Shown here piece after piece: positions 27,643 through 46,145 of a DNA stretch of 48,299 bases (within the stretch, counting starts at the first letter, position 1; each line of letters opens with the position of its first letter). The position numbers and the translations under genes were made by a program. The notes under the pieces are model-generated. The model worked only from the letters and a program-made list of their open reading frames with translations, was not told the origin of the DNA and made no database searches. Source of the stretch: a bacterium (lineage in GTDB: Bacteria; 4484-113); NCBI GenBank assembly GCA_029932365.1, contig JAOZQG010000001.1, positions 1 to 48,299 on the forward strand, written 5' to 3'.

Positions 27643-28230
27643 ATGGTGGAGATACCGTCGTCGTTACTAATCGGATGTATCAGCGGGGACGACACCTGCT
27701 GGCAGGAACTCATCCGCCTGACCGGCGGCCATTTCCAGCGCATCGCGCGGGTGAACCTGCGGGACCCCAGCCTGACGGACGACGTGTTGCAGGAAACCTA
27801 CTTCAAGGTCTTCCGCAACCTGCACAAGCTGCGCGACCGCTCGCGCGCCGTGCCCTGGATGGTGCAGATACTGATTAACGAATGCCGAATGATGAACCGG
27901 AAGCTGAAACGGGAAGCGCAAAACGAGAGCGAGGAGAGCCTCTCTTACCAGCTCGCTTCCACGGCGGACGGCCGCGGGCGCGAGGAGACGCGGGAGATCC
28001 TGGGACGGTTGCTGCGCCGGCTGCCGGAGCACTTCCGCGAAGTGCTGGCGCTGCGCGAAATAGAAGGCCTGGACTACGAGGAAATCGCACGGGCCCTCAG
28101 AATACCGGTCGGCACCGTGCGCTCCCGGCTGGCACGCGCCCGCGACGCCTGGGTCGAGCTGGCGGGCAAGGTCATTGAGGAAGGAGGCCTGGCCGACCTC
28201 TGCCTTGAAGGGGGTGACGGAGTTGCTTAA
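27643..28230 (+). CDS. ECF-type RNA polymerase sigma factor
   Basis: Region 2 (DVLQETYFKVFRNLHKL, PWMVQILINECR) and region 4 (REVLALREIEGLDYEEIARALRIPVGTVRSRLARAR). Confidence 0.85.
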   Translation: MVEIPSSLLIGCISGDDTCWQELIRLTGGHFQRIARVNLRDPSLTDDVLQETYFKVFRNLHKLRDRSRAVPWMVQILINECRMMNRKLKREAQNESEESLSYQLASTADGRGREETREILGRLLRRLPEHFREVLALREIEGLDYEEIARALRIPVGTVRSRLARARDAWVELAGKVIEEGGLADLCLEGGDGVA

Positions 28231-28759
28231 CGATTACCTTAAAAAAATGATTTCGGAGTACGCCGACGACGCGCTGGACCTGGACGCAACACGGCAGGTC
28301 AGCGACCTTATCGCGCGAAACCGCGAAGCGGAGGAGTACTTCACCAGGCTGCAATCGCTGCGCCGGCTTACCGCCGAGCGTCTGGGCGATGAGCCCGAGG
28401 ACCCGACGCTGGAACTCAGGATGATGAACGCGCTCAGGCTGCGAAGCTACGAACGGACGTGGTGGGAGCGCGTCTTCGCCTCCCGGGTGCTATCCCCTCG
28501 GACAGCGACCGCGGTGGCGTTTGCGATACTCGTCATCGTGCTGTTCCTCTTTTCCTGGTTCCAGGCGCCGGTAACTCGCTTTCTCTCCGATACCCAGGCC
28601 AAAGTCGAGCGGCTCAGCGATGAAGCCCAGACCGAACTTACCGAGCGGCGGCAGGAACTCACGGAAAGCCTGGGCGAGCTTCTCGCACCGCCTATTTCGG
28701 ACGACGACGAGGACAAGCGTACCGGCAGCACGATGGACCAAGAGGTGTCCGTGGCATGA
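28214..28759 (+). CDS. putative anti-sigma factor, single-pass membrane protein
   Basis: Directly follows and overlaps the ECF sigma gene. N-terminal helical segment, then TM helix AVAFAILVIVLFLFSWF. No zinc-binding Cys/His motif. Start ambiguous: TTG 28175, TTG 28205, GTG 28214 or ATG 28247. Confidence 0.5.
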   Translation: MTELLNDYLKKMISEYADDALDLDATRQVSDLIARNREAEEYFTRLQSLRRLTAERLGDEPEDPTLELRMMNALRLRSYERTWWERVFASRVLSPRTATAVAFAILVIVLFLFSWFQAPVTRFLSDTQAKVERLSDEAQTELTERRQELTESLGELLAPPISDDDEDKRTGSTMDQEVSVA

Positions 28760-29328
28760 GCCGCTGCTTTTACCATCCCGAAATCGAAACTGACGTTCGC
28801 TGCGAAGTGTGCGGCAAGCCCATCTGCGAGCACTGCCGGACCGTCCGCGAAGGGAAGATTATCTGCCCGCGATGTTTGCAGCGGGAAGAACATTCCAGCG
28901 CGAAGAGCACTCGCAGAACTGCCGCTCGCCACGACACGCCAACCTGGATCGGGCTGCTCATTCCCGGCGTGGCGCAGCTGCTGAAGGGCGAAATCTACAA
29001 GGGCTCGCTGCTGCTCGTGTACTTCTTCCTTGCCGCGTTTTCCGACGTGCCGGTTTTTATTTTCCTGGCCTACGGGATTAGCATATGGGACTACTTTTCG
29101 CCGCTGGTAGAGGAAGAGAGGAAAGGACGCGCCCTGATTAACTTCAGGCAGTTCGCCGGAGTGGTGATTTTGCTCGTAGGAGTCGTGTTGCTGGTTCAGA
29201 ATGTCAGCCGGGCGTTCAGCGTATTCTCCCGCGACCTGGCATCTACGCTGGCAGCGGTAGTAACCATCGCCTTCGGGCTGTTCATAATCTGGTATCACCT
29301 GGGTGAGCACCGAAAGGAGGTGCATTGA
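28756..29328 (+). CDS. zinc-ribbon (B-box-like) membrane protein
   Basis: N-terminal CFYHPEIETDVRCEVCGKPICEHCRTVREGKIICPRC (8 Cys/His ligands) followed by 3-4 TM helices. ATGA overlap with the upstream gene. Confidence 0.6.
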   Translation: MSRCFYHPEIETDVRCEVCGKPICEHCRTVREGKIICPRCLQREEHSSAKSTRRTAARHDTPTWIGLLIPGVAQLLKGEIYKGSLLLVYFFLAAFSDVPVFIFLAYGISIWDYFSPLVEEERKGRALINFRQFAGVVILLVGVVLLVQNVSRAFSVFSRDLASTLAAVVTIAFGLFIIWYHLGEHRKEVH

Positions 29329-30272
29329 TGTCTTTCAGGGATATAACCATGCTCGCGCTTCTGCTCGTTATCGGCCTTATTTTCAACCGCTGCGCCTTTC
29401 ACGGCGACGCTATAAATCTAACACACTCCGAGCGAGTGGCACAGCGGACGATCAAGCAGGCCGAGCGGGCGGCGGAACAGGTGACAAGGCAAGCCGAGCA
29501 GGCCGCAAAAGACCTGGAAAGGAGCGCGCAGCGGCTGAACGAGCGGATGGACGAGTTCAGCGAACGCATGGGCGAGTTTGGCGAGCGGATGGGCGAATTC
29601 GGCGAAGAAATCGGTGAAAAGATGGAAAGAGTCGGTGAGCATATAGGCGAGGAGTTCGAGGACGCGGGTGAAGTCCCTGCGGAAGACGCGGCGACGGAGC
29701 TAAACATTGACGTCGCCGCCGAAACGAAAACCGCCAAAGTTACGCTCAGCGTCACTCACGGTCTGGGCGTAGCTCCCAACATTGATCTGGCGCTGGACGT
29801 GCCCGTACTGTGCCGCCAAACGTCGCTTGCTTTCGGGCGGGAGCGGAAAAGGACGCTGAGCATTACTACCATCGGCGGCGACGGGCTGCAATCGCCTGAA
29901 ATCGCACCCGTTGATAGCGAGACCGTCGCGCTTAAGTTCCGCGGAGAGACGCCGCGCGAGCTTAGCTTAGAGCTTCCGCGTAACGTCCCCTACGTGAGAT
30001 TCGCCTTGCCGCAGGCGGTTAAGCTCGCGCTTTCCGAAGATATGCTGCTGATAAAACTGGACGCGCCGGCCGTGGGCTCGCTGAAGGTGACGAGGTCAAA
30101 GAAGCTGCTAACAGTCCGTCACGCCGACTGGACGCTAAATATCAGCGGGATTTCACAGCCGCTGCGGTTTATGGGCCTCGACGGAACGATGTTCGGGGGA
30201 GTCGGGGCCGACCAAAAAGGCGAAGTCGGATTCGGCTTCACCTCACGCGAGAATGAAGGAGGCAGGAAGTGA
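29325..30272 (+). CDS. membrane-anchored coiled-coil/heptad-repeat protein
   Basis: TM anchor ITMLALLLVIGLIF, then an acidic helical region with a 7-residue repeat (ERMDEFS ERMGEFG ERMGEFG ...), then a beta-rich C-terminus. ATGA overlap at 29325. Confidence 0.6.
   Translation: MMSFRDITMLALLLVIGLIFNRCAFHGDAINLTHSERVAQRTIKQAERAAEQVTRQAEQAAKDLERSAQRLNERMDEFSERMGEFGERMGEFGEEIGEKMERVGEHIGEEFEDAGEVPAEDAATELNIDVAAETKTAKVTLSVTHGLGVAPNIDLALDVPVLCRQTSLAFGRERKRTLSITTIGGDGLQSPEIAPVDSETVALKFRGETPRELSLELPRNVPYVRFALPQAVKLALSEDMLLIKLDAPAVGSLKVTRSKKLLTVRHADWTLNISGISQPLRFMGLDGTMFGGVGADQKGEVGFGFTSRENEGGRK
29541..29666 (+). repeat. about six tandem 21-nt (7-codon) repeat units inside the CDS
   Basis: gagcggatggacgagttcagc / gaacgcatgggcgagtttggc / gagcggatgggcgaattcggc / gaagaaatcggtgaaaagatg / gaaagagtcggtgagcatata / ggcgaggagttcgaggacgcg. 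Similarity decays toward the 3' end. Confidence 0.6.
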
Positions 30273-31432
30273 GACACACAACCTTCGGCATTATTTTAAT
30301 ACTTCTCGGGATTTTTCTCGGGCTTTGCTTTTTCGTTCAGGATACGACGTTGGTGCTGCGCCTGTGGCCTCTTTTGATTATCGTCTACGCTATCCTTGCG
30401 CACGGCCTTAATCCTGCGTACAGGGGCGGGCTGATGGTGGTGGCCCTCGTGCTGCTGATGGACGCGTTGGCTCCCAGCATCCTCGGCTCGGGCTACGGCT
30501 GGTTCTGGGCACTGCTCCTTATCTTCGTTGGCCTGCTCATCCTCTTTAGCGCGACGGAGCACGGACCGCATAAAAAGAAGGTTAAAGTCCACCCGGGCCC
30601 ATCTCCGCAGGAAACCCGAAGCGTGAAATTTTCGGTACGTGAAGAAACCGACGAGGGAACTACAGATGCCGACAGTGCATCTACAGTGCGAGGAGGCATT
30701 GAAATGACCGACGAAACCAAACATGAAGGACGCGATACAAATGGTGGGGAAAAAGCGGGCGCGACGGCCGTTGAGGGAGAATACAGCGGCGAAGGAGCAC
30801 ATTTCTTCGCCGACGTGCCCGAGGGCGCGGAACGCCTGATCTGCGACCTGGACTTCAACGCGGGGCGGCTGGAACTTACCGGCGACACCGACAGGCTGTT
30901 TGAAATCGAAACCGGACCCGGCTCCGACGTGGAGCCGCAGGTGGAGGTGACACTGGAGGAAGTAGACGGCGTGCAGGCGGTTAAGCTGCGCATCCACCAG
31001 GCGCACTTCAAGAGCTCCGTGCGCATGTTCGGCGTGCGCACTGAGTGGACACTCAAACTCAATGATCGGTTGCCCTTGACGATGAGCTGCGACATAAACG
31101 CTGCCAAGGCGCATATGGATTTCAGCAAGTTGCGCCTCGTGTCTCTAACGATGGACAACAACGCGGCGGCCAGCGAGGTGCGCATCGGCTCGCGCGAGGA
31201 CGAAGCCAGCCTGGACATTGACAACAACGCGGCCAAGCTGGACCTGGTGTTGCCGGCGGGCTTCGCCTACGAAGCAACGGTGGACAGCAACGTGGGCAAG
31301 CATAATGTCACCGAACTGCTGCCCCGGCGAACGGACGGTCGCTACTTCAGTGACGATTTAGATACCAATCCGCGGAAGATCAAAATGCATCTGGAAAACA
31401 ACGCTGCTAAACTAAACCTGAGGAAGCAATAA
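30269..31432 (+). CDS. LiaF-like membrane protein (LiaI/LiaF-type TM region plus toastrack/DUF2154-like beta-helix)
   Basis: N-terminal 4-TM segment. C-terminal periodic rungs DINAAKAHMDF / MDNNAAASEVRI / IDNNAAKLDLVL / ENNAAKLNL. GTGA overlap with the upstream gene. Confidence 0.65.
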   Translation: MRHTTFGIILILLGIFLGLCFFVQDTTLVLRLWPLLIIVYAILAHGLNPAYRGGLMVVALVLLMDALAPSILGSGYGWFWALLLIFVGLLILFSATEHGPHKKKVKVHPGPSPQETRSVKFSVREETDEGTTDADSASTVRGGIEMTDETKHEGRDTNGGEKAGATAVEGEYSGEGAHFFADVPEGAERLICDLDFNAGRLELTGDTDRLFEIETGPGSDVEPQVEVTLEEVDGVQAVKLRIHQAHFKSSVRMFGVRTEWTLKLNDRLPLTMSCDINAAKAHMDFSKLRLVSLTMDNNAAASEVRIGSREDEASLDIDNNAAKLDLVLPAGFAYEATVDSNVGKHNVTELLPRRTDGRYFSDDLDTNPRKIKMHLENNAAKLNLRKQ

Positions 31433-32959: not shown

Positions 32960-35900
32960 ATGGGGATTCTTCGCGTTCTGTCGGAGCTTATAGGAGGCGT
33001 ATCCCTGAAAAAGGCAGCGGAGCTGCTGCGCAGGGGAAAGGCCGAGGACGCGCTTAAGATTATTCAGAAGCTTTCCGAGCAAATGCCCTCCCCTCCGCCG
33101 GACGACAAGCTCGACGAATACGCTGAGCTTCACGCGCAGTGGGGACGTTGCCTGGCCAAGCTCAAGGACCCGGCTGCACTGGAGCATTTTGTCATCTCTC
33201 ACGAAGCCCGGTCCAACGAGTCGTTGCTGCGCGAAGGAGCTATCCTGATCGAAGAGCTGGGTTTGGTCTCGCCCCAGGCGACGGATTACATACTGCGTCT
33301 ATCCAAGCTGACCGAAGGCGAAAAGGGATTCCTGCTGAGCTACGCGAAGGAACTTGTCGGCGACGGCGATGTTACGCTGGACGACACCGAATTCGAGCTT
33401 GTCGTGGAGGCCAGCAAGGCTTTCACCCTGTGGAAGGGTGGAAGCAGCCTGATCGCCGACAGATTCCTCGCCCAGGGACGCGAGGACGAAGAAGCCATCG
33501 AGATCTACCGCATAGCGTATCCTACGCGCAAGAACGATGAAAAGCTGGTCAACGTTGTGCTCTCTCACCTTATTGCTGACAGCGAGCGCAGCGACTTCGC
33601 AGCGACGCTGTATCGCGACCTGCTGGACTCCGGGCAGGAGAACGATGACGCGCTGCGCCTGCTGGCCGAATACTACGTGGAGCAGCACGAGGTCACTCCC
33701 GGCACCATAGATTACATAACCAAGGCTCTTGAAAAGAAGCTGCCGCGACGCGACGTGCTGGAGAGCCTGGCTGCATACCTGCTTAAAACAAGGAAAGAAT
33801 TCCTGGACAAGAAGAAGCTCCTGCTTCTCGTGTTCCGCGCGGGTTACTTCAATAAAAACGTCCTCGCCTTCCTGGCGCAGGCCTTCGCCGAGGAGGGCAA
33901 CTTCAGCGACGAAGCCCTGATGGCCTACGAGGAGGCGCTGAAGAATAACCTGCTCACCAAGCGCATCACGCTGGTGCTGACCGAGCATTTCCTCGGCGAG
34001 GACCGGCGGGACGAGTTCGCCTGCAAGGTATACGAGCACTATCTGGGAGCGTGGCCCGAGCGTAAAACGCCCCGGCTGTACGCGCTGCTGGCCGCGACCT
34101 ATGTAGAAAAGAAGCGGATAGACGAACAGGCGCAGTCCATTTACGAAAGCACGCTCGCTCATGATCCGAGCAACTCGGAAATCCTTCCCCTGCTTGCCGC
34201 CAGTTACCTCACGTATGAAACCCGCCAGCCCAAAGCGTACTCGGTTTACGAGCGCGCCTTCCCCTACATCGAAGACGAAGAGATTCGCAACCGCATCGCT
34301 TTGCTGCTTGCCGAGCACCGGATAGAGGACGGCAACTACGACAAACGCACCCTCGATTACATCGAGCTGGCCCTGCAGTCCGCGACCGGCGAACGCAGAG
34401 AGCGGCTCTACGAGGCTCGCACGAAGTGCTTCCTGACGCTTAACCGACGCGACAAAGAAGCCGTAAAGGTCTATCTGGACCTTTACAACGAGCTGGGCGA
34501 GGAGCGAACAGAGGACGTCAGGCTCATAGCCATCCTCTCCGACATCCTCATCGAGAAGCCGGAAGAGGTCGATATTGAAGAGGGTCTGCGAAGACAGATT
34601 TTTTACGAGCGCTTCGAGAACGAGAAATTCAGCTGCCCGAAGAACATCGCCTTTTACTTGCTGGACCACGTACTCAGAGAAAATCCGGATTACAAGTACC
34701 GCATACACCTGGCGGTCCGCTGCCTGGAGGCTGACAGCGGGCACCTGGCCGACAAGCTGAAAGAGGCGGGAGAGCTGGATACGTTGCAGCTCGTCGGCCG
34801 CTTCTACCTTGAACGGTACAACTACGAGCTTGCCGCCCGTGCGTATTCCGTGGCCAACGAATACCACCACACGGAGGAAAACGATTATCAGCTGGCGAAG
34901 ATCCGCCTGTATGAAGGTAAAACGGAGCAGGCGCTGGCCCTGTTAGAAAAAGTGAAATCCGAGGAGAAAACGCCGCACGTCCTCTACTGGCGGGCGGCGG
35001 CATACCAGCAGGAAACAAGGCCCGACAAGGTAACGCCGCTGATTAAAAAGCTGGAACAGGAGGCCGATTCAATCCCCGAAGTGCTAATCAAACTGCGCAA
35101 GGGCCTTAACGCCGAACTGCTGGGAGACTACGGCGACGCGGTGGAGCTCTACAACGAATTGCTCGACAGCCCGGGGAGCATGCCCTACCGGCGCTGGGTG
35201 GACATTGAAATCGGGCTGGCGCTCTGGCGCATGGGCGCGACCGCGGAAGCGGAGAAAAAGCTCGGCGAGGTCTACCGTTATAATCCCAACGGCCGGGCGG
35301 AGCAGCGCAACTACTCCTACATCCTAGTTCTGCACGGCTTCGAACTAATACAGGAAGGAAAGTGGGAAGACGCATTAAACAACTTTCTCGAAAGCGTCGA
35401 AGCAAACCGAAACGACCGCCTGCTAAGAAGCGTTATCGTTGATTTACTGCTCAACTACGCCAAACGGTTCTTCTTTGACAGCGAATACGAGAGAGCGGTG
35501 CAGATTCTTGAGGTCGCACACCGCATCCTGCCGAAGAGCATCGAGGCCAAGACCTATCTGGCCTACTCCTACCACCTGCTTAGTCAATATGCGAAGGCGC
35601 TTATCTACTACCGCGACATCACCTGGACGACAGATGCACCGACACTGGAACGGTCGCAAGCTTACTGCTACCTGCAAAATAAGCAAACCCGTAAGGCCTG
35701 GCGGGTTTTTCTGGACCTCAAGCGGCGCGGAACCCTGCTGCCGGCGAATATCCCGCTGCTACTGGACGCCTATCTTTCCGATAAAGAACAGGAAGGAAGC
35801 GAAACATTCAAGGAGTTTGAATTCCCCGAGGACGTGAAAAGCCCCATTCCCTTCGCGGCGTTCTACATCCACGACGGTTTGCACGACCGCGCGCTGGAGC

Positions 35901-36934
35901 TTCTTACCAAGCACGCCAAAGGCGATTTGCAGGAGATGCAGCGCTTGTGGTTTCTGGGAAAAGCCTCAGCGAAGAAAGGTGACCGCAAACTGGCGGTGAC
36001 CTACTGGAAGCAGCTGCTAAAGGCATCGCAGAGCCGGCCCACCCACGATGAAACCAAGCTCTCCCAGCTTCTCGAAATCGGGCTCGCGTTTTTGCAGGCG
36101 GGCTACGCCCAGGAAGCAATGGAGACGTGGGAAGACCTCAAGAAGCTCGACGAAAAGTTTCAGCACCTGCCGAAGCTTTATGCCTACACGCTTAACCTAA
36201 ACGCTTACACCCTCGCGCAGAAGGACAACCTGAAGCTCGCCATCGCCGAATGGGAAAAAGCCATTGAATACGACCCGGACAACCTGGCCATTCTGCAGAA
36301 CATGGCTATCGCCTATATGGCGGCTGAGGAATTCGACCTATCCGCACTGCACTGGCGTAAACTGATGAGCCGCTGGAAGGTCATGATAGACCGTGACCCG
36401 CACATCCATGCTCATCTCACGGTCGCGATGGGCGAAGTGGAACGGGTGCTGTCAGACGTGTTCGTCGCCAAGATGCAGGAAGCGGACGAGGCATACGTCG
36501 CCAAGACCGAAGAGATGGTGGATTACTACCAGAAGGCGAATCAATTCTACTGGATACTGGGGCTCAACAAGAACGCCACGAAAGGGCAGATAGAAAAAAG
36601 CTACTTCAGGCTGGTCAAGATATTCGACCCGGAGCGCCACGCGTCCGACTTCATGCTGCTTGAAGACGCTTACGCGAATCTTACCAATCCACGCAAGCGG
36701 GAGCGCATCGACATATTCGCCTACAATCCGGTGGACGCGGGCAGGCTGCGCCAGATCGTGCTGGGAGACCGACGTGTGGGTTCGGTGTTTGAAGAGTTAA
36801 ACCTGCACGTTACGGTTCCTGGGCCGGACTATTCGCAGCTTGAACCCGATGACACTCCTCCCGAAGAAATAATCGCCAAACTGGCCGACTCGATACAGAT
36901 TTACTTCAAGCTGGGAGACATATCCGTAGTATGA
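32960..36934 (+). CDS. giant TPR-repeat protein with C-terminal J-like domain lacking HPD
   Basis: 1324 aa of helical-repeat sequence with recurrent A..Y..AL / W...A...Y TPR-like patterns. The C-terminus FYWILGLNKNATKGQIEKSYFRLVKIFDPERHASDFMLLEDAYANLTNPRKRERID matches the J-domain helix I-III layout. Confidence 0.8.
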   Translation: MGILRVLSELIGGVSLKKAAELLRRGKAEDALKIIQKLSEQMPSPPPDDKLDEYAELHAQWGRCLAKLKDPAALEHFVISHEARSNESLLREGAILIEELGLVSPQATDYILRLSKLTEGEKGFLLSYAKELVGDGDVTLDDTEFELVVEASKAFTLWKGGSSLIADRFLAQGREDEEAIEIYRIAYPTRKNDEKLVNVVLSHLIADSERSDFAATLYRDLLDSGQENDDALRLLAEYYVEQHEVTPGTIDYITKALEKKLPRRDVLESLAAYLLKTRKEFLDKKKLLLLVFRAGYFNKNVLAFLAQAFAEEGNFSDEALMAYEEALKNNLLTKRITLVLTEHFLGEDRRDEFACKVYEHYLGAWPERKTPRLYALLAATYVEKKRIDEQAQSIYESTLAHDPSNSEILPLLAASYLTYETRQPKAYSVYERAFPYIEDEEIRNRIALLLAEHRIEDGNYDKRTLDYIELALQSATGERRERLYEARTKCFLTLNRRDKEAVKVYLDLYNELGEERTEDVRLIAILSDILIEKPEEVDIEEGLRRQIFYERFENEKFSCPKNIAFYLLDHVLRENPDYKYRIHLAVRCLEADSGHLADKLKEAGELDTLQLVGRFYLERYNYELAARAYSVANEYHHTEENDYQLAKIRLYEGKTEQALALLEKVKSEEKTPHVLYWRAAAYQQETRPDKVTPLIKKLEQEADSIPEVLIKLRKGLNAELLGDYGDAVELYNELLDSPGSMPYRRWVDIEIGLALWRMGATAEAEKKLGEVYRYNPNGRAEQRNYSYILVLHGFELIQEGKWEDALNNFLESVEANRNDRLLRSVIVDLLLNYAKRFFFDSEYERAVQILEVAHRILPKSIEAKTYLAYSYHLLSQYAKALIYYRDITWTTDAPTLERSQAYCYLQNKQTRKAWRVFLDLKRRGTLLPANIPLLLDAYLSDKEQEGSETFKEFEFPEDVKSPIPFAAFYIHDGLHDRALELLTKHAKGDLQEMQRLWFLGKASAKKGDRKLAVTYWKQLLKASQSRPTHDETKLSQLLEIGLAFLQAGYAQEAMETWEDLKKLDEKFQHLPKLYAYTLNLNAYTLAQKDNLKLAIAEWEKAIEYDPDNLAILQNMAIAYMAAEEFDLSALHWRKLMSRWKVMIDRDPHIHAHLTVAMGEVERVLSDVFVAKMQEADEAYVAKTEEMVDYYQKANQFYWILGLNKNATKGQIEKSYFRLVKIFDPERHASDFMLLEDAYANLTNPRKRERIDIFAYNPVDAGRLRQIVLGDRRVGSVFEELNLHVTVPGPDYSQLEPDDTPPEEIIAKLADSIQIYFKLGDISVV

Positions 36935-37638
36935 AACGGACGCGGAAAAGCGATTCTATTCTACGACGGGCCGCCAGCCGCGTTGACTTCAGTTCGGAGC
37001 AACATTACAATCTAGTATTCGGCCTGGGAAGCAGGGGCGCGCCAGTCGCCCCCAAGGGGGATGTGTCCGGACACAGCCTGTACGAATACCAGACCGAGCT
37101 AAATCGTATTCGCATCGAGCTGTTTCGTTTGCAGCGGAATGTGAAAAATTTGCAGCTGCCGGCGCTGGAGGTTGTAGGACTTGACCGCGTCGGCGAGGAC
37201 CTTGACGGCTTAAAAGCGGAACTTCGCAGGCTTCTCGGCAAGGTGGAAAACGTAGCGAACCTGGACCCTATAAGGTCCGCCATTGAGGGATTCCTGGAAG
37301 TCGCGGATTCGTGCGAACGAGTGCTCGCGTCGGCGCGAAGCACCGAGGGGATTCCCCAAAGCGTCCTGACGGGCGTGGAGTCCATCTACCGGTTACTGCT
37401 TGCCAAGCTGAAGAGATTCGGCGTGGAGCCGATACCGGAAAGCGAGATGTTTGACCCTAACCGGCATATGGCGATAGCGACGGTGAAAGACCCCGCCAAG
37501 CCCGACGGGGCCATCTCGCAGGTTCAGCTTAGCGGTTACACGCTGGGGGACAAAGTGCTGCGCGCCGCGCAGGTCGTCGTAGTGCGCAATCGTCCCGGCG
37601 AGAGCGTGGAGAAGGGCAAGGCCAACTCGAAATTATAG
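36931..37638 (+). CDS. grpE: divergent GrpE-like nucleotide exchange factor
   Basis: C-terminal GrpE signature FGVEPIPESEMFDPNRHMAIATV...GYTLGDKVLRAAQVVVV. The N-terminal long-helix region is poorly conserved. ATGA overlap with the TPR gene. Confidence 0.65.
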   Translation: MKRTRKSDSILRRAASRVDFSSEQHYNLVFGLGSRGAPVAPKGDVSGHSLYEYQTELNRIRIELFRLQRNVKNLQLPALEVVGLDRVGEDLDGLKAELRRLLGKVENVANLDPIRSAIEGFLEVADSCERVLASARSTEGIPQSVLTGVESIYRLLLAKLKRFGVEPIPESEMFDPNRHMAIATVKDPAKPDGAISQVQLSGYTLGDKVLRAAQVVVVRNRPGESVEKGKANSKL

Positions 37639-37646
37639 GAGATATC

Positions 37647-39395
37647 ATGACGCAAATTGTTGGAATCGACTTGGGAACCACTAACTCCCTGGTTGCCGCG
37701 GTCATTGACGGCAAGCCTACGCTAATCCCTAACGAGCGCGGCAAGTTTATTACTCCTTCCGTAGTCGGGTTCACCGACACAGGTGAACTGCTCGTGGGCG
37801 ACCCGGCGAAGAACCAGGCGGTAGCCAATCCCGAACGCACAGTTACCAGCATCAAGCGCCTGATGGGCACCGACCGCCGCATCGTAATCGGGGAAAAGGA
37901 GTATTCGCCGCAGGAAATCTCCGCGGTCATCCTCAAGAAGCTGAAGCTCGACGCGGAGACGTACCTCGGTTCGGTGGTGAACGAGGCCATTATTACTGTG
38001 CCCGCGTACTTTACGGACGCGCAGCGGCAGGCCACTAAGGACGGAGGCGAAATCGCGGGATTTAAAGTGGAGCGCATCATAAACGAGCCCACCGCGGCGG
38101 CCCTGGCCTACGGCTTCGACAAGGGCGCGGAGGCGAAGACCATCCTTGTCTACGACCTCGGCGGCGGCACGTTCGACGTTTCGCTTATCCGGTTGGTCGA
38201 GGGCGCTTTCAAGGTTCTTGCCACTACCGGCAACAACAACCTAGGCGGCGACGACTTCGATTACCGTGTTGTGGAATACCTTATCGAGCGCTTCAAGGAC
38301 AAGGAGAAGGTCGACCTGAAGAATATCCCCGACGTGTCGCAGCAGCGCGCCATCCTTCAGCGCCTGAAGGAAGCCGCCGAAACGGCCAAGATCGACCTCT
38401 CGTCGCTTCTGGAAACGGAGGTTAACCTTCCGTTTATTTATACGGAGGGCGAGGAACCGCTTCACATGCACGAAACTCTGACCCGGGCGAAATACGAGGA
38501 ACTGGTATCCGACCTGGTGGAGCAGACCCAGCAGCCGATACAGCTTGCGCTATCCGATGCGAATCTGACGCCCGAGCAGGTTGACGCCATAATCTTAGTA
38601 GGCGGTATGACGAGAACGCCCATGGTGCAGCGGCTGGTTCGGGAAGAACTGGGTAAAGAAGCGCTCAAAGACATTAATCCTGAAGAATGCGTCGCCATGG
38701 GCGCGGCCATACAGGCTGGTATCAAGCGGGGATCGCTGGAGGAGTTCGTCGTCGTGGACGTTGCGCCGTTCACCCTCGGCATTGAAACCGAGGGCGACAA
38801 GTTCTCCCGCATCGTCCCCCGCAACACCGCCATACCTTGCTCGCGCAAGAGCCTTTACCGCACCACGGTGGACGCCCAGACCGAAGCGCTCATTCACGTG
38901 CTGCAGGGCGAAAGCGATAAAGCTTCGCAAAACGAATCACTGGGCGAATTCATACTCTCCGAGATCACGCCGGCGCCCCGGGGAGAATCGCTGGTTGAGG
39001 TCTTTTTCGACTACGACGTGAACGGAATCGTGAAAATCACCGCCAAAGACCGCAAGACCAGCCAGGGCAAGTCCATCACGATTAAGGCGTCCAAGAAGCG
39101 CCTTACGACCGACGAAGTGGCCCACGCCCAGCGCGATGTGAGCCGCCATACCGGCTCTATGCTGGCGCAGCGTGAGCGCTCTAAGGTGCTGTATGAAGCG
39201 GAGAATACGCTCAAGGACCTTACCGCGCTCATTCGCGCCGCCGAGAAGGGTGAAAAGAAAATTGACAGCCTTGAAATCTCCCGCCTTAGCGAGATGGCCA
39301 ACAAGATTAAGGAGGCTCTCAAATCCGAGGAACTCACCCTGCTGGAAGAACACATTGAGAAGGCCACAGGCCTAATCGCGGATTATTCCTACTAG
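37647..39395 (+). CDS. Hsp70-family chaperone, short HscC-like form
   Basis: IVGIDLGTTNSLVA, TVPAYFTDAQRQATKDGGEIAGF, RIINEPTAAALAYG, DLGGGTFDVS, LVGGMTRTPMV and DVAPFTLGIET. 582 aa with a shortened lid. TLIPNERGKFITPSVV resembles E. coli HscC (LIPN) rather than DnaK. AGGAGA SD site. Confidence 0.9.
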   Translation: MTQIVGIDLGTTNSLVAAVIDGKPTLIPNERGKFITPSVVGFTDTGELLVGDPAKNQAVANPERTVTSIKRLMGTDRRIVIGEKEYSPQEISAVILKKLKLDAETYLGSVVNEAIITVPAYFTDAQRQATKDGGEIAGFKVERIINEPTAAALAYGFDKGAEAKTILVYDLGGGTFDVSLIRLVEGAFKVLATTGNNNLGGDDFDYRVVEYLIERFKDKEKVDLKNIPDVSQQRAILQRLKEAAETAKIDLSSLLETEVNLPFIYTEGEEPLHMHETLTRAKYEELVSDLVEQTQQPIQLALSDANLTPEQVDAIILVGGMTRTPMVQRLVREELGKEALKDINPEECVAMGAAIQAGIKRGSLEEFVVVDVAPFTLGIETEGDKFSRIVPRNTAIPCSRKSLYRTTVDAQTEALIHVLQGESDKASQNESLGEFILSEITPAPRGESLVEVFFDYDVNGIVKITAKDRKTSQGKSITIKASKKRLTTDEVAHAQRDVSRHTGSMLAQRERSKVLYEAENTLKDLTALIRAAEKGEKKIDSLEISRLSEMANKIKEALKSEELTLLEEHIEKATGLIADYSY

Positions 39396-39417: not shown

Positions 39418-40041
39418 TTGCTGTTGGCGCAGCTGAAAGAATGTCCCGTATGCCGCGGCGAGCTTTCCGGTCGCCCGGAGAAGTGCCCCGGGTGCGGCGT
39501 GGAACTTACGCCTTACTACGAGCAATTAGACGAGGCCAATAAGGCACTCGCTGAAGCCTTCAACGCCGCAACCCGGGGAGAGTTCGAGCACGCACGCGAG
39601 ATGGGAAGCAAGGCTCAGGCCATAATCCCGCTGGTTGAGGACCAGGTGTCGCTGTTACACGTTCGTATCGCCATCGGGGAACGGAGGCTCGCCGACGCCT
39701 GGGAAAAAGCCGAAAGCCTTCCAGACACCGTGCGAGAGAAATCGGAACTGCTTCACGAGATTGCGTCGCTGCACGAACTCGAGACAAGCGGCAAGCAGCA
39801 CTTCAATCTGGCGCTGACTTCCGCGTGCCACGAGTATTACGCCGACGCCTCCTACCACATCGAGCGGGCGGTCGAACTGATTCCCTATATCCCAGCGGTC
39901 TGGCGTTTGGCGGTGAAGATCGAGCTCAAACGTAGGAGATACGACTTTGCACGGAAGTACCTAGAGCAGGGCGTGCAGATGTTTCCAAACGAAAGATACC
40001 TCGCTTCGCTTGCTGAGGAGCTGAACCGCGACAACGCCTAA
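39418..40041 (+). CDS. zinc-ribbon plus TPR-like helical protein
   Basis: CPVCRGELSGRPEKCPGCG zinc ribbon at the N-terminus, then helical repeats. TTG start without a clear SD site, so the start is uncertain. Confidence 0.5.
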   Translation: MLLAQLKECPVCRGELSGRPEKCPGCGVELTPYYEQLDEANKALAEAFNAATRGEFEHAREMGSKAQAIIPLVEDQVSLLHVRIAIGERRLADAWEKAESLPDTVREKSELLHEIASLHELETSGKQHFNLALTSACHEYYADASYHIERAVELIPYIPAVWRLAVKIELKRRRYDFARKYLEQGVQMFPNERYLASLAEELNRDNA

Positions 40042-40171: not shown

Positions 40172-42952
40172 CTAGTCTATGTTGGCCGCTGCTTCGATGT
40201 ACAGCTGCCTTACAGTGGACACGAGACCGTTCGCGGTCTCGCCTCCGATAATCCACACCGTATCGTTGGGCAGTGGATTACCGTCCTCGTCCAAATAGCT
40301 GAACAGGGCGACCGATCCTGCACCTGCACGCCCCTGCGCCGGTCCAACCGTCCCGGACCAGACATAAGTGTCGGGGTTGAATACTTCAGATGCGTTAACG
40401 AACTCAGGAGCGCCCTGGTCCTGGGGATAATTGACTCCGCCATAAACGTAGATCTTCCCCTGGATAATCTCCGCAGCAGCGCCGGCGCGGGCGTACTTCA
40501 TATCCGGCATAGCCTCCCAGCCGCCCGTATCTAGACGCACTCTCTCCACCGTTCGCGTACTCACGCCGGAGTTGTTGCGTCCTCCAATGGCATACAGGTA
40601 CGGGAAGTCGAGAACCAATGCGAAGTCGTAGCGCGGAGTCGGCATCGCACTGACAACCCCGCTAAACCAAGCATTGTCTCCAGGCCTGAATACCCAACTG
40701 GTTCCACTCACGAATTCACTCGGCGGGTCGCCTTGCAGTCCGCCCATCAAGATAAGCGACGATCCGCCACCGTAAGCTATGCCACGGATAGAGGGCATCA
40801 GCCTTAGCTGCGTGTTATTGTTGCCAATTGAGCCAACTGTCGTCCACGGCACGACCGGGTAATCCGTGCTGTCACCGTCGAAGCTCGGCAGCATCTCCAC
40901 CACGGAAAGCGTCTGGTCGCTGCTGTTTATTCCGCCAATCGCGTAGATGCCGGTCGAATTCGTACCTCGAGTGAGGCTGCCCAGCGGCTCGGCAGCCAGC
41001 TGACCTCGCGGCGTGGACAGGGGCAAGCGATCACTAACGCTCACCTGACTCGCCCAATTTCCAGCGCCCATCAGATATTCCTGCTTTATAAGCTGGACAC
41101 TACGCAGGGCAACGTTGCCATCCATACCGCCGATGAGAAACACCCGCCGCCCGACCAAGAAGTCGTCGGTCAGGTCTCCGTCCGTACCGTTATCATCAAT
41201 GACGGTCACCGCCGCCGCACCGAAGTCGCGCCGTGCCTGGAGGGGGTCTCCTGTGGGACCCGGATTGATATCGCGGCTGACCACAAACGACAGCGGCACG
41301 TTGTCAGTACGGCTGGTTAGTTCAAGCCCGCCCTCAGAGACAACTATGACCCTAGTACGAACGCCCTTGTAGCCAGGCAGCAGAGCGGCCGGATATTCAA
41401 TCTCGAATATGGCTTCCGCTATGTTGCCGGGTTGCTCAGTAATCCCCACTCTGGCCACGCTGGTTGCGCCCGGATCTTCATCAAGGTCGACATCTTCGTA
41501 ATTCCCGTCGTAGTCGGGATCCCACTCCAGCGTCTGGTCGTAAATCGGACTCTCCTCAGTGCCCTCGTTGATATCCTCTGCCCATACGCCGTCGCCGAGA
41601 ATGTCAATCTGGAAACGATAACTGTCCGGCCCTTCCGAGCCGCTGGCAAGCACCCGGAAGTGAACCGTCCTGCTGCTTCCCTGCGGAATGGCAGCGCTCT
41701 GCTCGGCGTAGTTGCCGTCGTTATCCACCGCGTAAGCGCCATCACCGTCGATATCAACCAGAGTCTCTGTAATCAGGGGATTCACCACCGGCTCATATGC
41801 CCGGTCCACCACGCGAACCGGCCATTCAAGATGCACTATCTGGCCGATACCGTCCACGAAGTGGAGCGCAAGAGTGAAATTGCGCGAAACGTGGCCGAAC
41901 GTTTTATAAGGATTGACCGAGATATTCAGGTCGGCATCGTAGTATGGCACGGATACCGAAGTCGTATTGGCGTCGTAGACACCGTCATTGGTGAAATCCC
42001 AGTAAAAGCCGTACGGCAGCACGCCGGGATGGTCCGGGTCCACCGTTACGCTGGCGTTCATCGCCGGTTCCCGCTCGTCGACATCGTCGCTGCTCGAATC
42101 GAATTCAATCAGGATTGACCCATCGGACCTGATCGGGGGAGAGGAATTCACGATAAGCTCCGGAGGCCCCGTAGGCTCTTCCGGCAATTCCTTGATGACC
42201 GTCAGGGGGAACTGGCGCGTTATTGAGTAATCGTTGGCATCCGTTACCGTGAGCTTAATCACGTAGGCCTCGGACTCACCTTCCAGCACGGTGAACGTGT
42301 ACTGCGGATTCTGCTGGGTCGAGTCTGTCCGCCCGTCACTGTCGAAGTCCCACTGGTAGCGGTACGGAGGAGTTCCGGGATTCTGCGGGTCGGGGAACAC
42401 GCGGCAGTAAATCGGCTCTCCCGAAAGGTAGACATAAATTGGCTCCCCTTCCTGGTCGTAGCCGATCACATTGTCGCTAATTATGCGGGTTAGCGTAGAA
42501 TCGAGCGCAAACTGCGGTTCGTCCGTGACGAGAATAGACACCGGCTCGCTGGTGCGAACCACGCCGGCATCATCCCTTACTCTGACCACGCCCTGGTACA
42601 GAGACGACCCCTGCTCGATGTCAGCATCCCGCAGGTAATACAGGTGGTAAGCCTGCTCCGTGCGTCTCGCGACCTCGTTGACGTAGAAGTCGAACGCCCC
42701 GTCATTGTCGAAGTCCCACATATAGGTGAACGGGAGCTCGCCGCCGGCTATAGTGACAATAAAGTTGACACCCAAGGGCGAGCCGCCGGTAGTGGGAGAT
42801 GCAGTATACGTGACGATCCTCAGATCGCTATCGTCATCGTCACCACCCGCCTGGCTTGGCAGGGTTACATTCCCCTTGTTGCCGCCGCCGCCACAAGCGG
42901 CGACGGCAACGATGAGTATCACCAGAGCGCAAATTACTCTCAGCACTTTCAT
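40172..42952 (-). CDS. surface lipoprotein with PKD-like repeats and a C-terminal Kelch-type beta-propeller
   Basis: ATG at 42952 lies 9 nt after GGGAGGA and gives lipobox VAVAAC followed by a Gly run. PKD-like WDF motifs: YMWDFDNDGAFD, YQWDFDSDGRTD, FYWDFTNDGVYD. Kelch-like blades: IYAIGG, LILMGG, LYAIGGRNNSG, IYVYGG, VWIIGG. Confidence 0.8.
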   Translation of the reverse strand: MKVLRVICALVILIVAVAACGGGGNKGNVTLPSQAGGDDDDSDLRIVTYTASPTTGGSPLGVNFIVTIAGGELPFTYMWDFDNDGAFDFYVNEVARRTEQAYHLYYLRDADIEQGSSLYQGVVRVRDDAGVVRTSEPVSILVTDEPQFALDSTLTRIISDNVIGYDQEGEPIYVYLSGEPIYCRVFPDPQNPGTPPYRYQWDFDSDGRTDSTQQNPQYTFTVLEGESEAYVIKLTVTDANDYSITRQFPLTVIKELPEEPTGPPELIVNSSPPIRSDGSILIEFDSSSDDVDEREPAMNASVTVDPDHPGVLPYGFYWDFTNDGVYDANTTSVSVPYYDADLNISVNPYKTFGHVSRNFTLALHFVDGIGQIVHLEWPVRVVDRAYEPVVNPLITETLVDIDGDGAYAVDNDGNYAEQSAAIPQGSSRTVHFRVLASGSEGPDSYRFQIDILGDGVWAEDINEGTEESPIYDQTLEWDPDYDGNYEDVDLDEDPGATSVARVGITEQPGNIAEAIFEIEYPAALLPGYKGVRTRVIVVSEGGLELTSRTDNVPLSFVVSRDINPGPTGDPLQARRDFGAAAVTVIDDNGTDGDLTDDFLVGRRVFLIGGMDGNVALRSVQLIKQEYLMGAGNWASQVSVSDRLPLSTPRGQLAAEPLGSLTRGTNSTGIYAIGGINSSDQTLSVVEMLPSFDGDSTDYPVVPWTTVGSIGNNNTQLRLMPSIRGIAYGGGSSLILMGGLQGDPPSEFVSGTSWVFRPGDNAWFSGVVSAMPTPRYDFALVLDFPYLYAIGGRNNSGVSTRTVERVRLDTGGWEAMPDMKYARAGAAAEIIQGKIYVYGGVNYPQDQGAPEFVNASEVFNPDTYVWSGTVGPAQGRAGAGSVALFSYLDEDGNPLPNDTVWIIGGETANGLVSTVRQLYIEAAANID

Positions 42953-42997
42953 CAGGTTACGTCCTCCCAACCATCGGGATCACGAACTTCCGGCTTT

Positions 42998-44026
42998 CTA
43001 CGGCCGGTAATGCTCAACAATAGTATCCATACCCATCTGGGTTAGCCCGCCGATAATGTAAAAGTCCCCGCCGGGCGTGTAGAACTCGTTATACACCTTA
43101 GTCTGGGTAGCACCCACCCAGCCGCGAGGCACCAATCTCGTAGGCGCCAGCGATAATGAGCCATTCTCCAGGACGTCGTAGACTGAGCCCGTGTAACCGT
43201 CAATGGTGCGACCACACATCTGCCGATAGACCGTGCCGCGGTCGTCAACCTGCCAGCCGGCAGCCTGTCCGGCAGCGGCTTCAGGCACGCTGGCCACAGT
43301 TCTCCACGAACCCATTACCGGGTTGTTGACACTATCAAAGGTGTATTCATCCACCTGGGAAATGTAGTTGCCGTTTCGGTCGAATCCGCCGACCACTACG
43401 ATGCGCCACGGCTCGTCAGTAAGCTTGTCGGGCAGGGTTACAAACGCGCTGTGGTAGGCACGCTCAATCGGCATTTCTGAGACGAGAGAGTAATCTCCTG
43501 CTCTAGGTTCACCTTCCTCGCGCTCAGGCGGTTCCTGCCAGACATTGAACCAGCGCATTGCGTTAGTCGGCACGCCGCTATCCGTAATGCCGCCGAGGAT
43601 GAACACGTAGCAGTACGGCCCTTCCGGCCACACCGGAGGCGGGATGATATTTCCCTTCGACTCGAGAGCTACCGCAGCATGCCCGTAGAGCGGTTCGGGA
43701 AGCGGATTCAGGGGCGCCGCGTTCTGACCACCACCGCCGCCGCCGCCCGGCGGACGGTCCGGTACCTGAGGTATGTTAGCGCATGGGCCGTTCTGCGGCA
43801 GCCAGTCGTAGTCAATCAACATATAACGGTCTGACCAAATATCAGTCTGAGCGTTCACGAACTGCGCAATCGGCTCACCCGTCGCCGGATCAAACAGGAT
43901 GGGGAACATATCCTCGGTACCGTAAGTCTCAGGATAGTATTTCTGAACCACATCCAGCGGATTGCCGGAATCGTCACGACCGCCGAACACGTAAGCTACG
44001 GGAACACCGTAGCCACCCCTACTCAA
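42998..44026 (-). CDS. Kelch-repeat segment, probably the 3' continuation of 44060..46045 rather than an independent gene
   Basis: Blades AYVFGGRDDSG, VFILGGITDSG, VVVGGFDRNGNY and FYIIGG. No signal peptide. TTG start with no SD site, buried in a hairpin. Same frame as the upstream ORF. Confidence 0.55.
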   Translation of the reverse strand: MSRGGYGVPVAYVFGGRDDSGNPLDVVQKYYPETYGTEDMFPILFDPATGEPIAQFVNAQTDIWSDRYMLIDYDWLPQNGPCANIPQVPDRPPGGGGGGGQNAAPLNPLPEPLYGHAAVALESKGNIIPPPVWPEGPYCYVFILGGITDSGVPTNAMRWFNVWQEPPEREEGEPRAGDYSLVSEMPIERAYHSAFVTLPDKLTDEPWRIVVVGGFDRNGNYISQVDEYTFDSVNNPVMGSWRTVASVPEAAAGQAAGWQVDDRGTVYRQMCGRTIDGYTGSVYDVLENGSLSLAPTRLVPRGWVGATQTKVYNEFYTPGGDFYIIGGLTQMGMDTIVEHYRP

Positions 44027-44046
44027 GGCCCAACCTGGGCCTAAGT
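44021..44046 (-). promoter_or_regulatory. candidate recoding (SECIS-like) hairpin downstream of the in-frame UGA
   Basis: mRNA ACUUA-GGCCCA-[GGU]-UGGGCC-U(U)GAGU: 11 bp with one bulged U. It starts 13 nt after the UGA at 44062-44060 and has a GGU apical loop. Folded by hand only. Confidence 0.3.
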
Positions 44047-44059
44047 CTGGACGCGGCTG

Positions 44060-46045
44060 TCATCCGGGGCAGGCGCCAAAGCCGCCCGGATTGACGTCCC
44101 AATCCTCGTGCACTATCACTGCTGCAGCCGAGCCGCGCTCCACAAACTGCACGCTTTTCTGGAGCGTGCGACTGCCCGTCATGAAGGCGCTGCCGCAATC
44201 CGGCGGTCCGCCGTTGCCTAAGGTCGGTGGCGTCTTTACCGTGGGGATCATCCCCATTCCGCCGGGGATATACGCGTACGCAAGTCCCTGCAACGAGTTT
44301 AGCAGAGTAAATCCGCCGTCTTCATACGGTTCGGCCTCATCATCGCCAGCCGCGACAGAGCCGAACATGCCCGTGGGCGGACGGTCGGTGCCGGTCAGAT
44401 TAAGCGCGTAGGAGGACACTACGCGGTCTACGACGCCAGTGAATTCACCGTAGTCGCTGTAAATATCTCCGCCGAAGAGGTACACCATGCCGGATGCATG
44501 CGATGCTACCGCGGGATTGGCGCGCTTACCAAAAGCGGGCAGAGGGCCGTCGACAGCAAGCCCCCCATAGGCGGACCAGCCGAGTGTGGGCGTGCGCTCA
44601 GCGCGGTATAGCGTTGCCGGCTCGGGCTGGCGAGGCTCGATGCGGATCAGATTGCTGACCGCTTCGACGCCGTTGTCATCCTTGGCCACAAGGCGCACCA
44701 CGTAAGGAGCACCTACCCCTTCACCGCTTTCATAAGCTTCGCTGCCGTTCAAGTCCACGTATTGACCGACGAAAGTGGCAAAGGTGATCACCGGATTCGG
44801 GTCGGTTGTCGTGTCCGGCACCACAATCGCCTGAGGGTCTTTAATCGGCGTCGGATACGTGGGCGGAAGCACGATAATAGGCTCATCACCGGTCGGTACA
44901 AGGTCAGTGAATACCTCCCAGTTGTAGTGGATAGGCTCCTTGCCGCCTTCAGTGTAGCTGGTAAGCTGTACGCTGAAGGGCACCGGGCCCTCCGTCGCGT
45001 CAGCCTCAATCGAAACCGAGAACGTGGCTTCCTGGCTAACGTAAACCGGAACAATACCGCTTGTTCCCGTCATGCCCTGGTTGTCCCTGACTGTTAGCAG
45101 GGCGTTATAGACGCCCCGGGCGGTATAGGTGTGCTGAGCCACCACTGCCGAGTCAAAGTCGCGGTAAGTGCCATCACCGAAATCCCAGTAGAACTCGTAG
45201 GGAGGCTCGCCACCCGAAGCGCCACCGCTGAAAACTACCGGCAGCGGGGCCTGCCCGGAGCCCGGATTGGCCGCGGCATACGCCAGCAAGGTTGATGGCG
45301 GCACCACGTTTATCGCGACGCGCCAGTCAGACTGGCCGTCACCGTCCAGGTCGTCCGCCGTGGAAACTTCAACTCCACGGTTGTCCACTACGGTGAGCAC
45401 GGGATAATACAGGTAGGAATCTTCGCCCGTCTGGGGACCGGGTTGCGCGTAGACGTGTATGGGATTCTCGCTGTTGCTGTCGGGCATCCCGTCGCCCTCA
45501 AAGTCCCAAATAAACCCATATGGCGGGCTTCCGCCTGACACCAGCGCCGTGAATTGCACCCGTAGAGGCGCGGGGCCGGAGTTGACAGAAGGCTGGAATC
45601 GCACCACCAGCGGCTGGGTTCCAGTCCCACCGGGCTCGCCTGTTGGGGCGGTTACCGTAATAGACTTGCTTACTGTAACCGTCTGGTGACGCGAATCGGT
45701 TATCTTTACTGCAACAACCGCACTGTTATTGAATGTCCAGTACGGGTCTACAGCGTTCGAATCAGCCACTCCGTCTCCGTCAAAATCCCATTCGTAGGAG
45801 TACGAAGGATAGCCTCCGAACGCATACGCCGAGAAGCTAACCGTCAGCGGTGTCGGCCCCTGATCAGGGGTCGCTGTAAGCACCACCGAAAACGGCTGGC
45901 TCTCGTCAGCAGGTGGTTCACCGCCGCCGCCAGTTTGCTGCGAAGGCGTAATCGGTGTAGGACCACCGCCGCCACCGCCGCAGGCCACGGCGAGTGCGGC
46001 GATAACCACAACCACCAAGAGCCAAAGCCTGTTACTTACCATCAT
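44060..46045 (-). CDS. lipoprotein with PKD-like repeats and the first Kelch blades, ending at an in-frame TGA
   Basis: AGAGGTG SD site 7 nt before the ATG. Lipobox LAVAC plus a Gly run. PKD-like motifs YEWDFDGDGVADSN, FIWDFEGDGMPDSN and FYWDFGDGTYRD. Kelch-like VYLFGGDIY. The propeller appears incomplete at the stop. Confidence 0.75.
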   Translation of the reverse strand: MMVSNRLWLLVVVVIAALAVACGGGGGGPTPITPSQQTGGGGEPPADESQPFSVVLTATPDQGPTPLTVSFSAYAFGGYPSYSYEWDFDGDGVADSNAVDPYWTFNNSAVVAVKITDSRHQTVTVSKSITVTAPTGEPGGTGTQPLVVRFQPSVNSGPAPLRVQFTALVSGGSPPYGFIWDFEGDGMPDSNSENPIHVYAQPGPQTGEDSYLYYPVLTVVDNRGVEVSTADDLDGDGQSDWRVAINVVPPSTLLAYAAANPGSGQAPLPVVFSGGASGGEPPYEFYWDFGDGTYRDFDSAVVAQHTYTARGVYNALLTVRDNQGMTGTSGIVPVYVSQEATFSVSIEADATEGPVPFSVQLTSYTEGGKEPIHYNWEVFTDLVPTGDEPIIVLPPTYPTPIKDPQAIVVPDTTTDPNPVITFATFVGQYVDLNGSEAYESGEGVGAPYVVRLVAKDDNGVEAVSNLIRIEPRQPEPATLYRAERTPTLGWSAYGGLAVDGPLPAFGKRANPAVASHASGMVYLFGGDIYSDYGEFTGVVDRVVSSYALNLTGTDRPPTGMFGSVAAGDDEAEPYEDGGFTLLNSLQGLAYAYIPGGMGMIPTVKTPPTLGNGGPPDCGSAFMTGSRTLQKSVQFVERGSAAAVIVHEDWDVNPGGFGACPG

Positions 46046-46145
46046 ATTTCTACACCTCTTGGGTGAAGTTTACCGGTCTATTATACCCAATTCAGGCCGT
46101 TTACAGCTACCCTTGCGCGCGCGATCACGCAATGCACACTGATTA

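Follow-up and report, generated by a model that had tools for sequence, protein, structure and literature searches.

Most known selenoproteins are thioredoxin-like or established oxidoreductases, and the bacterial genes that are read through SelB, with Escherichia coli fdhF as their archetype, are the closest described counterparts of the locus reported here. In the published consensus, a bacterial selenocysteine insertion sequence (SECIS) element has an apical loop of 3-9 nucleotides (nt), an upper stem of 4-16 base pairs (bp) and the pattern N1-G-[G/U]-N-N2, with G in the first two loop positions, and it lies 16-37 nt from the UGA with a minimum free energy of -7.5 kcal/mol or lower (PMC13188914). 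Many bacterial SECIS elements are unlike each other and unlike those of E. coli (PMC13188914). Among motifs that involve selenocysteine (Sec; U in one-letter code), CxxU and UxxC are the most frequent kind, and CxxU is generally interpreted as a redox-active selenenylsulfide. Here we describe a stretch of 48,299 nt (GenBank assembly GCA_029932365.1, contig JAOZQG010000001.1, positions 1 to 48,299; GTDB lineage 4484-113), which we call the window in its entirety, in which the gene for a putative PKD-Kelch lipoprotein is interrupted by one in-frame UGA at codon 662. Judging from comparative sequence data, this UGA very probably encodes Sec, and the gene would define a new candidate selenoprotein family that uses ordinary SelB/SECIS recoding.

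On the minus strand of the window, the open reading frames (ORFs) 44060..46045 (661 amino acids [aa], starting with ATG) and 42998..44026 share a common frame with a single TGA (44060-44062) between them, and the junction translates as G-A-C-P-G-TGA-Q-P-R-P-D-L-G-P-G-W-A-L-S-R. A preliminary description of this DNA, made from the sequence without database searches, had reported the two ORFs and these junction residues and had proposed that read-through would give a lipoprotein of about 1015 aa with PKD-like repeats and Kelch blades. Rereading the sequence returned the same frame, the same residues and a length of 1015 aa, with PKD and PKD_4 matched by Pfam in the part upstream of the UGA and Kelch_1, Kelch_3, Kelch_4 and Kelch_6 in the part downstream of it. 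The parts of the gene are the following:

42998..46045, minus strand: the whole putatively recoded gene, a frame of 1015 codons (661 aa + UGA + 353 aa) ending at the TAG 42998-43000; orthologues show the identical two-part layout in conserved synteny
45980..46045, minus strand: putative signal peptide ending in a lipobox (…LAVA-C22), with a Gly-rich linker after it, read from the translation; the …AVAC-GGG motif is kept in all N-terminal fragments
45059..45274, minus strand: best-scoring PKD domain (residues 258-329; Pfam PKD_4 E = 1.4e-18, PKD E = 2.6e-14), inside a region of PKD-like repeats (~residues 50-470)
43001..44644, minus strand: Kelch-type six-bladed beta-propeller (residues ~468-1015) with the UGA inside it, from Pfam Kelch, the AlphaFold2 model of orthologue P0002 and Foldseek
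44069..44071, minus strand: codon TGC of Cys659, three residues ahead of the UGA, which would make a C-P-G-U motif; Cys in 16 of 18 distinct orthologue sequences
44060..44062, minus strand: in-frame UGA, candidate Sec codon (residue 662); 28 loci with 18 distinct sequences all have TGA in this column

A lipoprotein-like signal is recognisable in the N-terminal sequence, MMVSNRLWLLVVVVIAALAVAC-GGGGGG, with a pattern …A-L-A-V-A-C-GGGG that, read by eye from the sequence, is kept in all orthologues, and the two PKD matches score 67.1 and 53.4 bits against Pfam gathering cut-offs of 27 and 23.5. The AlphaFold2 model of P0002, the one close orthologue without the interruption, has a predicted template-modelling score (pTM) of 0.74 and forms a six-bladed propeller with strands on either side of the junction, whose loop is modelled with a per-residue confidence (pLDDT) below 50; the best Foldseek matches of this model are the Kelch domains of Keap1 and KLHL proteins, over ~510 of 552 columns with probability 1.0. 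Both halves contribute to this fold, so the upstream product by itself would lack part of the propeller, as the preliminary description had anticipated. It had likewise pointed to an adjacent paralogue of the same architecture in one piece, which we find at 40172..42970 (minus strand, probable ATG at 42952) with lipobox, PKD-like and Kelch regions in 926-932 aa; this uninterrupted paralogue always follows the recoded gene.

With the propeller region as query, a protein search retrieved orthologues at 52-77% identity, and the DNA of 31 related loci was taken from JGI metagenomes, GTDB genomes, ENA, Logan and NCBI. Of these 31 loci, 28 carry TGA in the same column; these 28 comprise 18 distinct junction sequences of 52-100% protein identity from independent assemblies and come from lineages that include JAUWGS01, JAGGTK01, CAZXPM01, CAZKNJ01, MVCR01 and CAYQDL01. 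The form lacking the TGA occurs in JBBIJQ01 and JBBIRS01. Whether orthologues keep the TGA instead of a sense codon had been singled out beforehand as a check, and the outcome is uniform: neither TAA nor TAG nor any sense codon, TGG and TGY included, stands at this column among the 28 TGA loci or their 18 distinct sequences. Every database copy is likewise split at this point, with N-terminal fragments that end in ...NPGG.G.CPG or ...CPS and C-terminal fragments of ~330-349 aa. The junction reads NPGG.G.C-P-[GS]-TGA-[QR]-[PA]-R-[PA]-D-x-G-P-G-W in the main clade and A-P-P-G-TGA-TVGYPDCPPGW (in the metagenome-assembled genome [MAG] 4484_113) or A-C-P-T-TGA-TIPVPDMPPGW in a divergent clade. Conserved motifs of the protein include HE.WD.NPGG and PD.GPGW. 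In one locus, a low-coverage 4-kb contig (L008; Ga0172366_10028028, ~2678-2745), the TGA and the hairpin described below are present and the frame shifts ~20 codons past the TGA, probably through an assembly indel.

A lone stop in an otherwise intact frame, seen in one window, is what a pseudogene, a recent nonsense mutation or a sequencing or assembly error would look like, and the preliminary description had listed recent mutation and assembly error among its alternatives. The comparative data already refute this reading, to which we assign a negligible probability: the recurrence of this TGA across 28 loci that derive from numerous independent samples and assemblers excludes an assembly error, the depth of the divergence (to 52% protein identity) excludes a recent mutation, and both halves of the gene are under purifying selection at 52-79% identity. 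A genome-wide reassignment of UGA to sense (genetic codes 4 or 25) could appeal to the stop usage of the window, in which TGA, despite 60% G+C, is the rarest of the stops at 27 gene ends (TAG 14, TAA 8 and TGA 5 including the candidate Sec codon; e.g., 19966, 20894, 22918, 24446 and 27284) and, of the four genuine TGA stops, three overlap the next start as ATGA. Nevertheless, TGA does end four other genes of the window and 18 of the 53 called genes in the related loci, where its use is more even; the 48 kb contain a single in-frame TGA with long coding sequence on both sides, that of the Kelch lipoprotein gene; and neither Trp nor Gly is found consistently at the UGA column in the uninterrupted relatives, so that reassignment has practically no likelihood left. 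A search of the window and 15 loci for other in-frame TGAs with long open stretches on both sides yielded no convincing case, the remaining hits being off-frame noise or adjacent genes.

The region past the UGA bears the marks of translated sequence. Aligned by codon, residues +1 to +13 (QPRPD.GPGW.L) of the main clade are kept as amino acids and vary at synonymous sites, for instance at Pro+3 (CCG/CCA/CCC), Asp+6 (GAC/GAT) and Leu+13 (TTG/TTA/CTA/CTT); conservation as protein with synonymous variation extends over 20 codons past the TGA, and the 353 downstream codons as a whole are conserved among orthologues. Closer around the UGA, from codon -5 to codon +4 (44048-44077, minus strand), synonymous sites are nearly frozen in the main clade (Gly-5 GGC in 14/14, Cys TGC in 14/15, Gly-1 GGA in 13/15, Gln+1 CAG in 12/12 and Arg+4 CGT in 14/15), which suggests either a codon-context requirement or participation in a lower stem. 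These observations bear on the possibility that the gene is genuinely split, with the UGA ending a 661-aa lipoprotein, re-initiation producing a second chain, and the two chains forming one propeller. Gene callers everywhere annotate two proteins, a GTG at +21 follows a GGAGG-like string (formed by Gly-Gly codons) in 6 of 17 orthologues, and an ATG at +18, again with such a string, occurs in the divergent clade (both members). No start codon after the TGA is conserved, however, the first in-frame ATG, GTG or TTG ranging from codon +6 to codon +24, and in the window no Shine-Dalgarno-like string precedes any candidate start, in agreement with what the preliminary description had said of the downstream ORF. 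Moreover, the 12-20 codons that separate the UGA from the candidate starts are conserved as protein with varying synonymous sites, the downstream part lacks a signal peptide (again as previously described) even though its partner would be an exported lipoprotein, the break would fall in a loop connecting blades of a single propeller, and the uninterrupted relatives are single chains. We therefore consider a split gene very unlikely.

RNAfold reproduced, for the window sequence, the hairpin noted in the preliminary description at 44046-44021, with 11 bp, a single bulged U and GGU as its loop, beginning 13 nt past the UGA. Two nested elements can be delimited here:

44026..44042, minus strand: conserved hairpin core A-GGCCCA-[GGU]-UGGGCC-U, a 7-bp stem with a 3-nt loop that begins 24 nt past the UGA, supported by pairing and covariation
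44011..44058, minus strand: extended stem-loop, in which an outer helix AGCCGC.UCC / GGG.GUGGCU surrounds the 11-bp hairpin 44021-44046 (RNAfold, -29.0 kcal/mol)

Retention of the hairpin in orthologues, also proposed earlier as a check, is borne out by the alignment. Across the 18 distinct sequences, 96.8% of the cells of the 7-bp stem (alignment columns 36-42 / 46-52, loop GGU) are paired, with compensatory changes at two covarying pairs, 36-52 (GC in 9, AU in 6) and 39-49 (UA in 9, CG in 8). None of 500 column shuffles matched the stem in both pairing and covariation, and sliding the 3' strand by one column lowers the pairing to 62-67%. The covariation lies partly at synonymous sites. The stem is encoded by the codons of G-P-G-W-x-L, among which base 3 of the first Gly codon (C or U) changes in step with base 1 of the Ala/Thr/Val/Ile codon facing it, base 1 of the Leu codon (U or C) likewise changes with the base that it faces, and the Pro codon, CCA in all 15 of 15, pairs with UGG, the codon for Trp; the Gly codon of the loop is GGT in 14 of 15, against a synonymous diversity of 0.5-0.8 at other Pro and Gly columns of the gene. 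Overall, the stem is under selection, with compensatory changes. The 54 nt past the UGA are also stable relative to the rest of their own genes: the median fraction of gene windows at least as stable is 0.045 (0.007 for the window sequence), and the fraction is below 0.4 in all 16 genes. The outer helix, which pairs the C-rich codons of Q-P-R-P just past the UGA with the G-rich G-G codons at nt +45 to +53, is seen in most orthologues in a register shifted by up to 2 nt and is not counted as conserved; one clade combines Pro-to-Ala (CCG to GCU) with Tyr-to-Leu (UAC to CUU), and the outer pairing is kept.

The hairpin agrees with every item of the bacterial SECIS consensus, with a loop A-GGU-U, a stem of 7-8 bp (11 bp with the bulge in the window), a distance of 24 nt and folding energies of -18 to -29 kcal/mol for the 63 nt from the UGA onward. 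In the divergent clade, the loop is GGGUU or CGGGUU and lies ~26 nt from the UGA. UGA followed by C terminates weakly, and this is the context read from the main-clade sequences; a hairpin might stimulate read-through by a standard tRNA, either near-cognate tRNA-Trp or a suppressor, giving a mixture of 661-aa and 1015-aa products with no involvement of selenium. The conserved UGA, the translation past it and the downstream structure would fit any hairpin-dependent recoding, and no Sec/Cys pair was found among the homologues, as this explanation would have it. Yet, if the residue were a standard one, a single substitution (to TGG, TGY, CGA or GGA) would suffice to make the identical protein at full yield and should have become fixed in some lineage; none occurs in 18 sequences that diverge to 52% identity. 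The distance of the hairpin and its small, G-first loop fit the SelB-type consensus exactly, the conserved Cys at -3 is the expectation for a C-x-x-U redox pair, and programmed read-through of cellular genes is rare in bacteria. Standard-tRNA read-through is accordingly, in our judgment, an improbable explanation.

Cys occupies position -3, as in C-x-x-U, in 16 of the 18 distinct sequences, which answers in the affirmative the earlier question of a conserved upstream Cys; in the other two (L008 aside), of the form found in MAG 4484_113, Cys is at +7 instead. Homologues that lack the TGA, whose remodelled loop with no Cys at the UGA column the preliminary description had not foreseen, fall into different parts of the family. 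In a neighbour-joining tree of the C-terminal part, one lineage (locus L016 and P0002) branches from within the TGA clade and has jointly lost TGA, Cys and hairpin: it has the loop sequence GADGGLARTWPDQGAGW, and with Ala in place of Pro the CCA/UGG pairing is gone. Scored with a covariance model of the junction, L016/P0002 reaches 17.9 bits, compared with 81-96 bits for the main-clade TGA forms and 44-57 bits for the divergent clade; the model was built from the TGA sequences that it scores high, and only its low scores are informative. Two other loci (L010 and L018), with a shorter loop and no TGA, branch outside the entire TGA clade, and a search of 1.84 billion representative proteins for distant homologues added ~12 full-length proteins (960-1175 aa) with lipobox, PKD and propeller. 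Judged from these sequences, the Sec loop seems to have arisen in one subclade.

Thus, the UGA is conserved and translated through, a conserved hairpin stands at the distance of a SECIS element, a partner Cys precedes the UGA, and one lineage has lost these features jointly; that Sec is the residue inserted, that SelB is the reader, and what role the motif plays, we infer. The product would be a single exported lipoprotein of 1015 residues, with a lipobox signal peptide, PKD repeats and a six-bladed Kelch propeller, in which codon 662 (UGA) would be recoded as Sec. The hairpin, which starts in coding sequence just past the UGA, would act as the SECIS element and bind SelB with Sec-tRNA(Sec), and Sec would be delivered to the UGA in competition with release factor 2. 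The residue would sit in a long flexible loop between two propeller strands and form a C-x-x-U pair with Cys659, presumably as a redox-active selenenylsulfide, or else as a metal or metalloid ligand, outside the cell.

Several observations weigh against this assignment. Taken as a single sequence, the window hairpin is unremarkable in stability against shuffled sequences (z = -1.68; 13 of 200 shuffles equally stable), and the case that it exceeds chance comes from its conservation rather than from single-sequence stability. Covariance-model searching of the junction, which the preliminary description had recommended, did not return a SECIS: no Rfam SECIS family (SECIS_1 to SECIS_5) matched at the gathering threshold in the window or at E <= 10 in 43900-44200. 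The protein is not of the thioredoxin fold or another known redox enzyme, and no NCBIfam selenoprotein model matches it at the junction or in the C-terminal part. None of the uninterrupted homologues (P0002, L016, L010, L018, P0024-P0034 and P0042) has Cys at the UGA column; these relatives have a remodelled or shorter loop, and the classical Sec/Cys pair is missing. Finally, neither the window nor ~300 kb of flanking DNA from related loci yielded selA, selB, selD or tRNA-Sec, a result that concerns these stretches: ARAGORN found no tRNA-Sec in the window and 17 loci, and Pfam no SelA, SelB or SelD among 30 window ORFs. If the lineage did lack selABCD, the UGA would have to be decoded independently of the Sec system, by hairpin-dependent recoding to a standard residue or something else, and would amount to a new kind of programmed recoding signal in bacteria; we give this little credence. 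With the conserved TGA, the Cys at -3 and the compensatory changes in the hairpin, the earlier proposal of a candidate Sec site is strengthened, and we continue to regard Sec at codon 662 as highly probable. The only Rfam match near the junction, to ftsZ-DE on the opposite strand, was judged a chance hit.

Upstream of the gene, two further elements were read directly from the sequence:

46055..46058, minus strand: Shine-Dalgarno-like GAGG, 9 nt ahead of the ATG at 46045
46080-46085, minus strand: TATAAT

The surroundings follow a conserved order of M24 peptidase, EF-P, recoded gene, paralogue, a 207-aa protein and then Hsp70/GrpE/DnaJ. The 207-aa protein (39418-40041, plus strand) is divergently oriented beyond the paralogue and carries an N-terminal CPVC...CPGC zinc ribbon; its very weak NCBIfam match to 'zinc ribbon-containing (seleno)protein DG' (NF049953, E = 0.004, 17 bits versus a cut-off of 130) probably reflects just the ribbon. 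The adjacent chaperone cluster (32960-39395, plus strand) is unusual in composition, with a 1324-aa DnaJ-domain/TPR protein, GrpE (joined by a 4-nt ATGA overlap) and Hsp70, and it adjoins the Kelch pair in several relatives (L025, L026 and L027). Elsewhere on the plus strand, the window encodes a 996-aa Met-zincin (11074-14064; DUF4953 + DUF5117), preceded by two ORFs of ~400 aa that have no Pfam match (8682-11080), and a run of four ORFs, also with no Pfam match (28175-31432), downstream of an ECF sigma factor (27643-28230).

If Sec is indeed inserted, the family would be a selenoprotein of an unusual kind, a lipid-anchored, PKD-decorated Kelch beta-propeller located outside the cytoplasm of an uncultivated sediment lineage, whose MAGs, 4484_113 among them, are labelled Planctomycetales bacterium. 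Sec in a propeller loop would point to chemistry new to this fold, such as a redox step at the cell surface or the binding of a metal or metalloid. The family also has consequences for annotation, with the gene appearing as two 'hypothetical proteins' in every database copy found, and it offers a test case for SECIS biology: the element would lie within the codons of a conserved G-P-G-W peptide, superimposing RNA and protein constraints, and Ala/Thr/Val/Ile replacements are matched by synonymous changes on the opposite strand of the stem. The nested lineage with joint loss of UGA, Cys and hairpin provides a natural control. To our knowledge, no known Kelch protein carries Sec. There is no Kelch, PKD or propeller entry among the 119 prokaryotic selenoprotein families and subfamilies of the 2026 catalogue (PMC13188914 Table 1), the deep-Sep and BSepDB texts do not mention a Kelch family, the deep-Sep supplements do not mention the 4484-113 / 4484_113 lineage, and a literature search on that lineage and selenium, or on bacterial Kelch selenoproteins, returned nothing relevant.

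With respect to fold, the protein resembles the six-bladed Kelch propellers of Keap1, KLHL12/17/20 and bacterial NanM/YjhT-like proteins, as judged by Foldseek (probability 1.0, target-normalised TM ~0.7) and the Pfam Kelch motifs, but differs from them in sequence (11-17% identity), in its very large inserted loops (552 aa versus ~290) and in the fusion to PKD repeats and a lipid anchor. It shares a Cys three residues ahead of the putative Sec with the C-x-x-U selenoproteins (SelW-like, AhpD-like, GrdA and HdrA; PMC13188914 Table 1); those are mostly thioredoxin-like or known oxidoreductases with Cys homologues, whereas here the motif is on a surface loop, modelled with low confidence, of a Kelch propeller, and the Sec-less homologues lack it. 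A location of Sec outside the cytoplasm is predicted as well for other exported or outer-membrane families (the FCYXU-type TonB-dependent receptor, GSU2204/MtrB-PioB, multihaem ExtKL and DsbA-like proteins; PMC13188914 Table 1), all of which, like the Kelch candidate, are computational predictions from a conserved UGA and a SECIS element; their folds are different, and none is a PKD-Kelch lipoprotein. The closest likeness is to the SelB-read genes themselves, including fdhF: an in-frame UGA, a stem-loop in the coding region with a small loop that starts with G-G/U, a spacing of 24 nt within the permitted 16-37, and an element that overlaps codons and restrains their synonymous sites. Unlike genes of the E. 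coli fdhF type, the Kelch gene has no Rfam SECIS match and encodes a putative beta-propeller lipoprotein instead of a molybdoenzyme. The mechanism that we propose is thus the ordinary bacterial Sec system, acting in a host protein that would be new for it.

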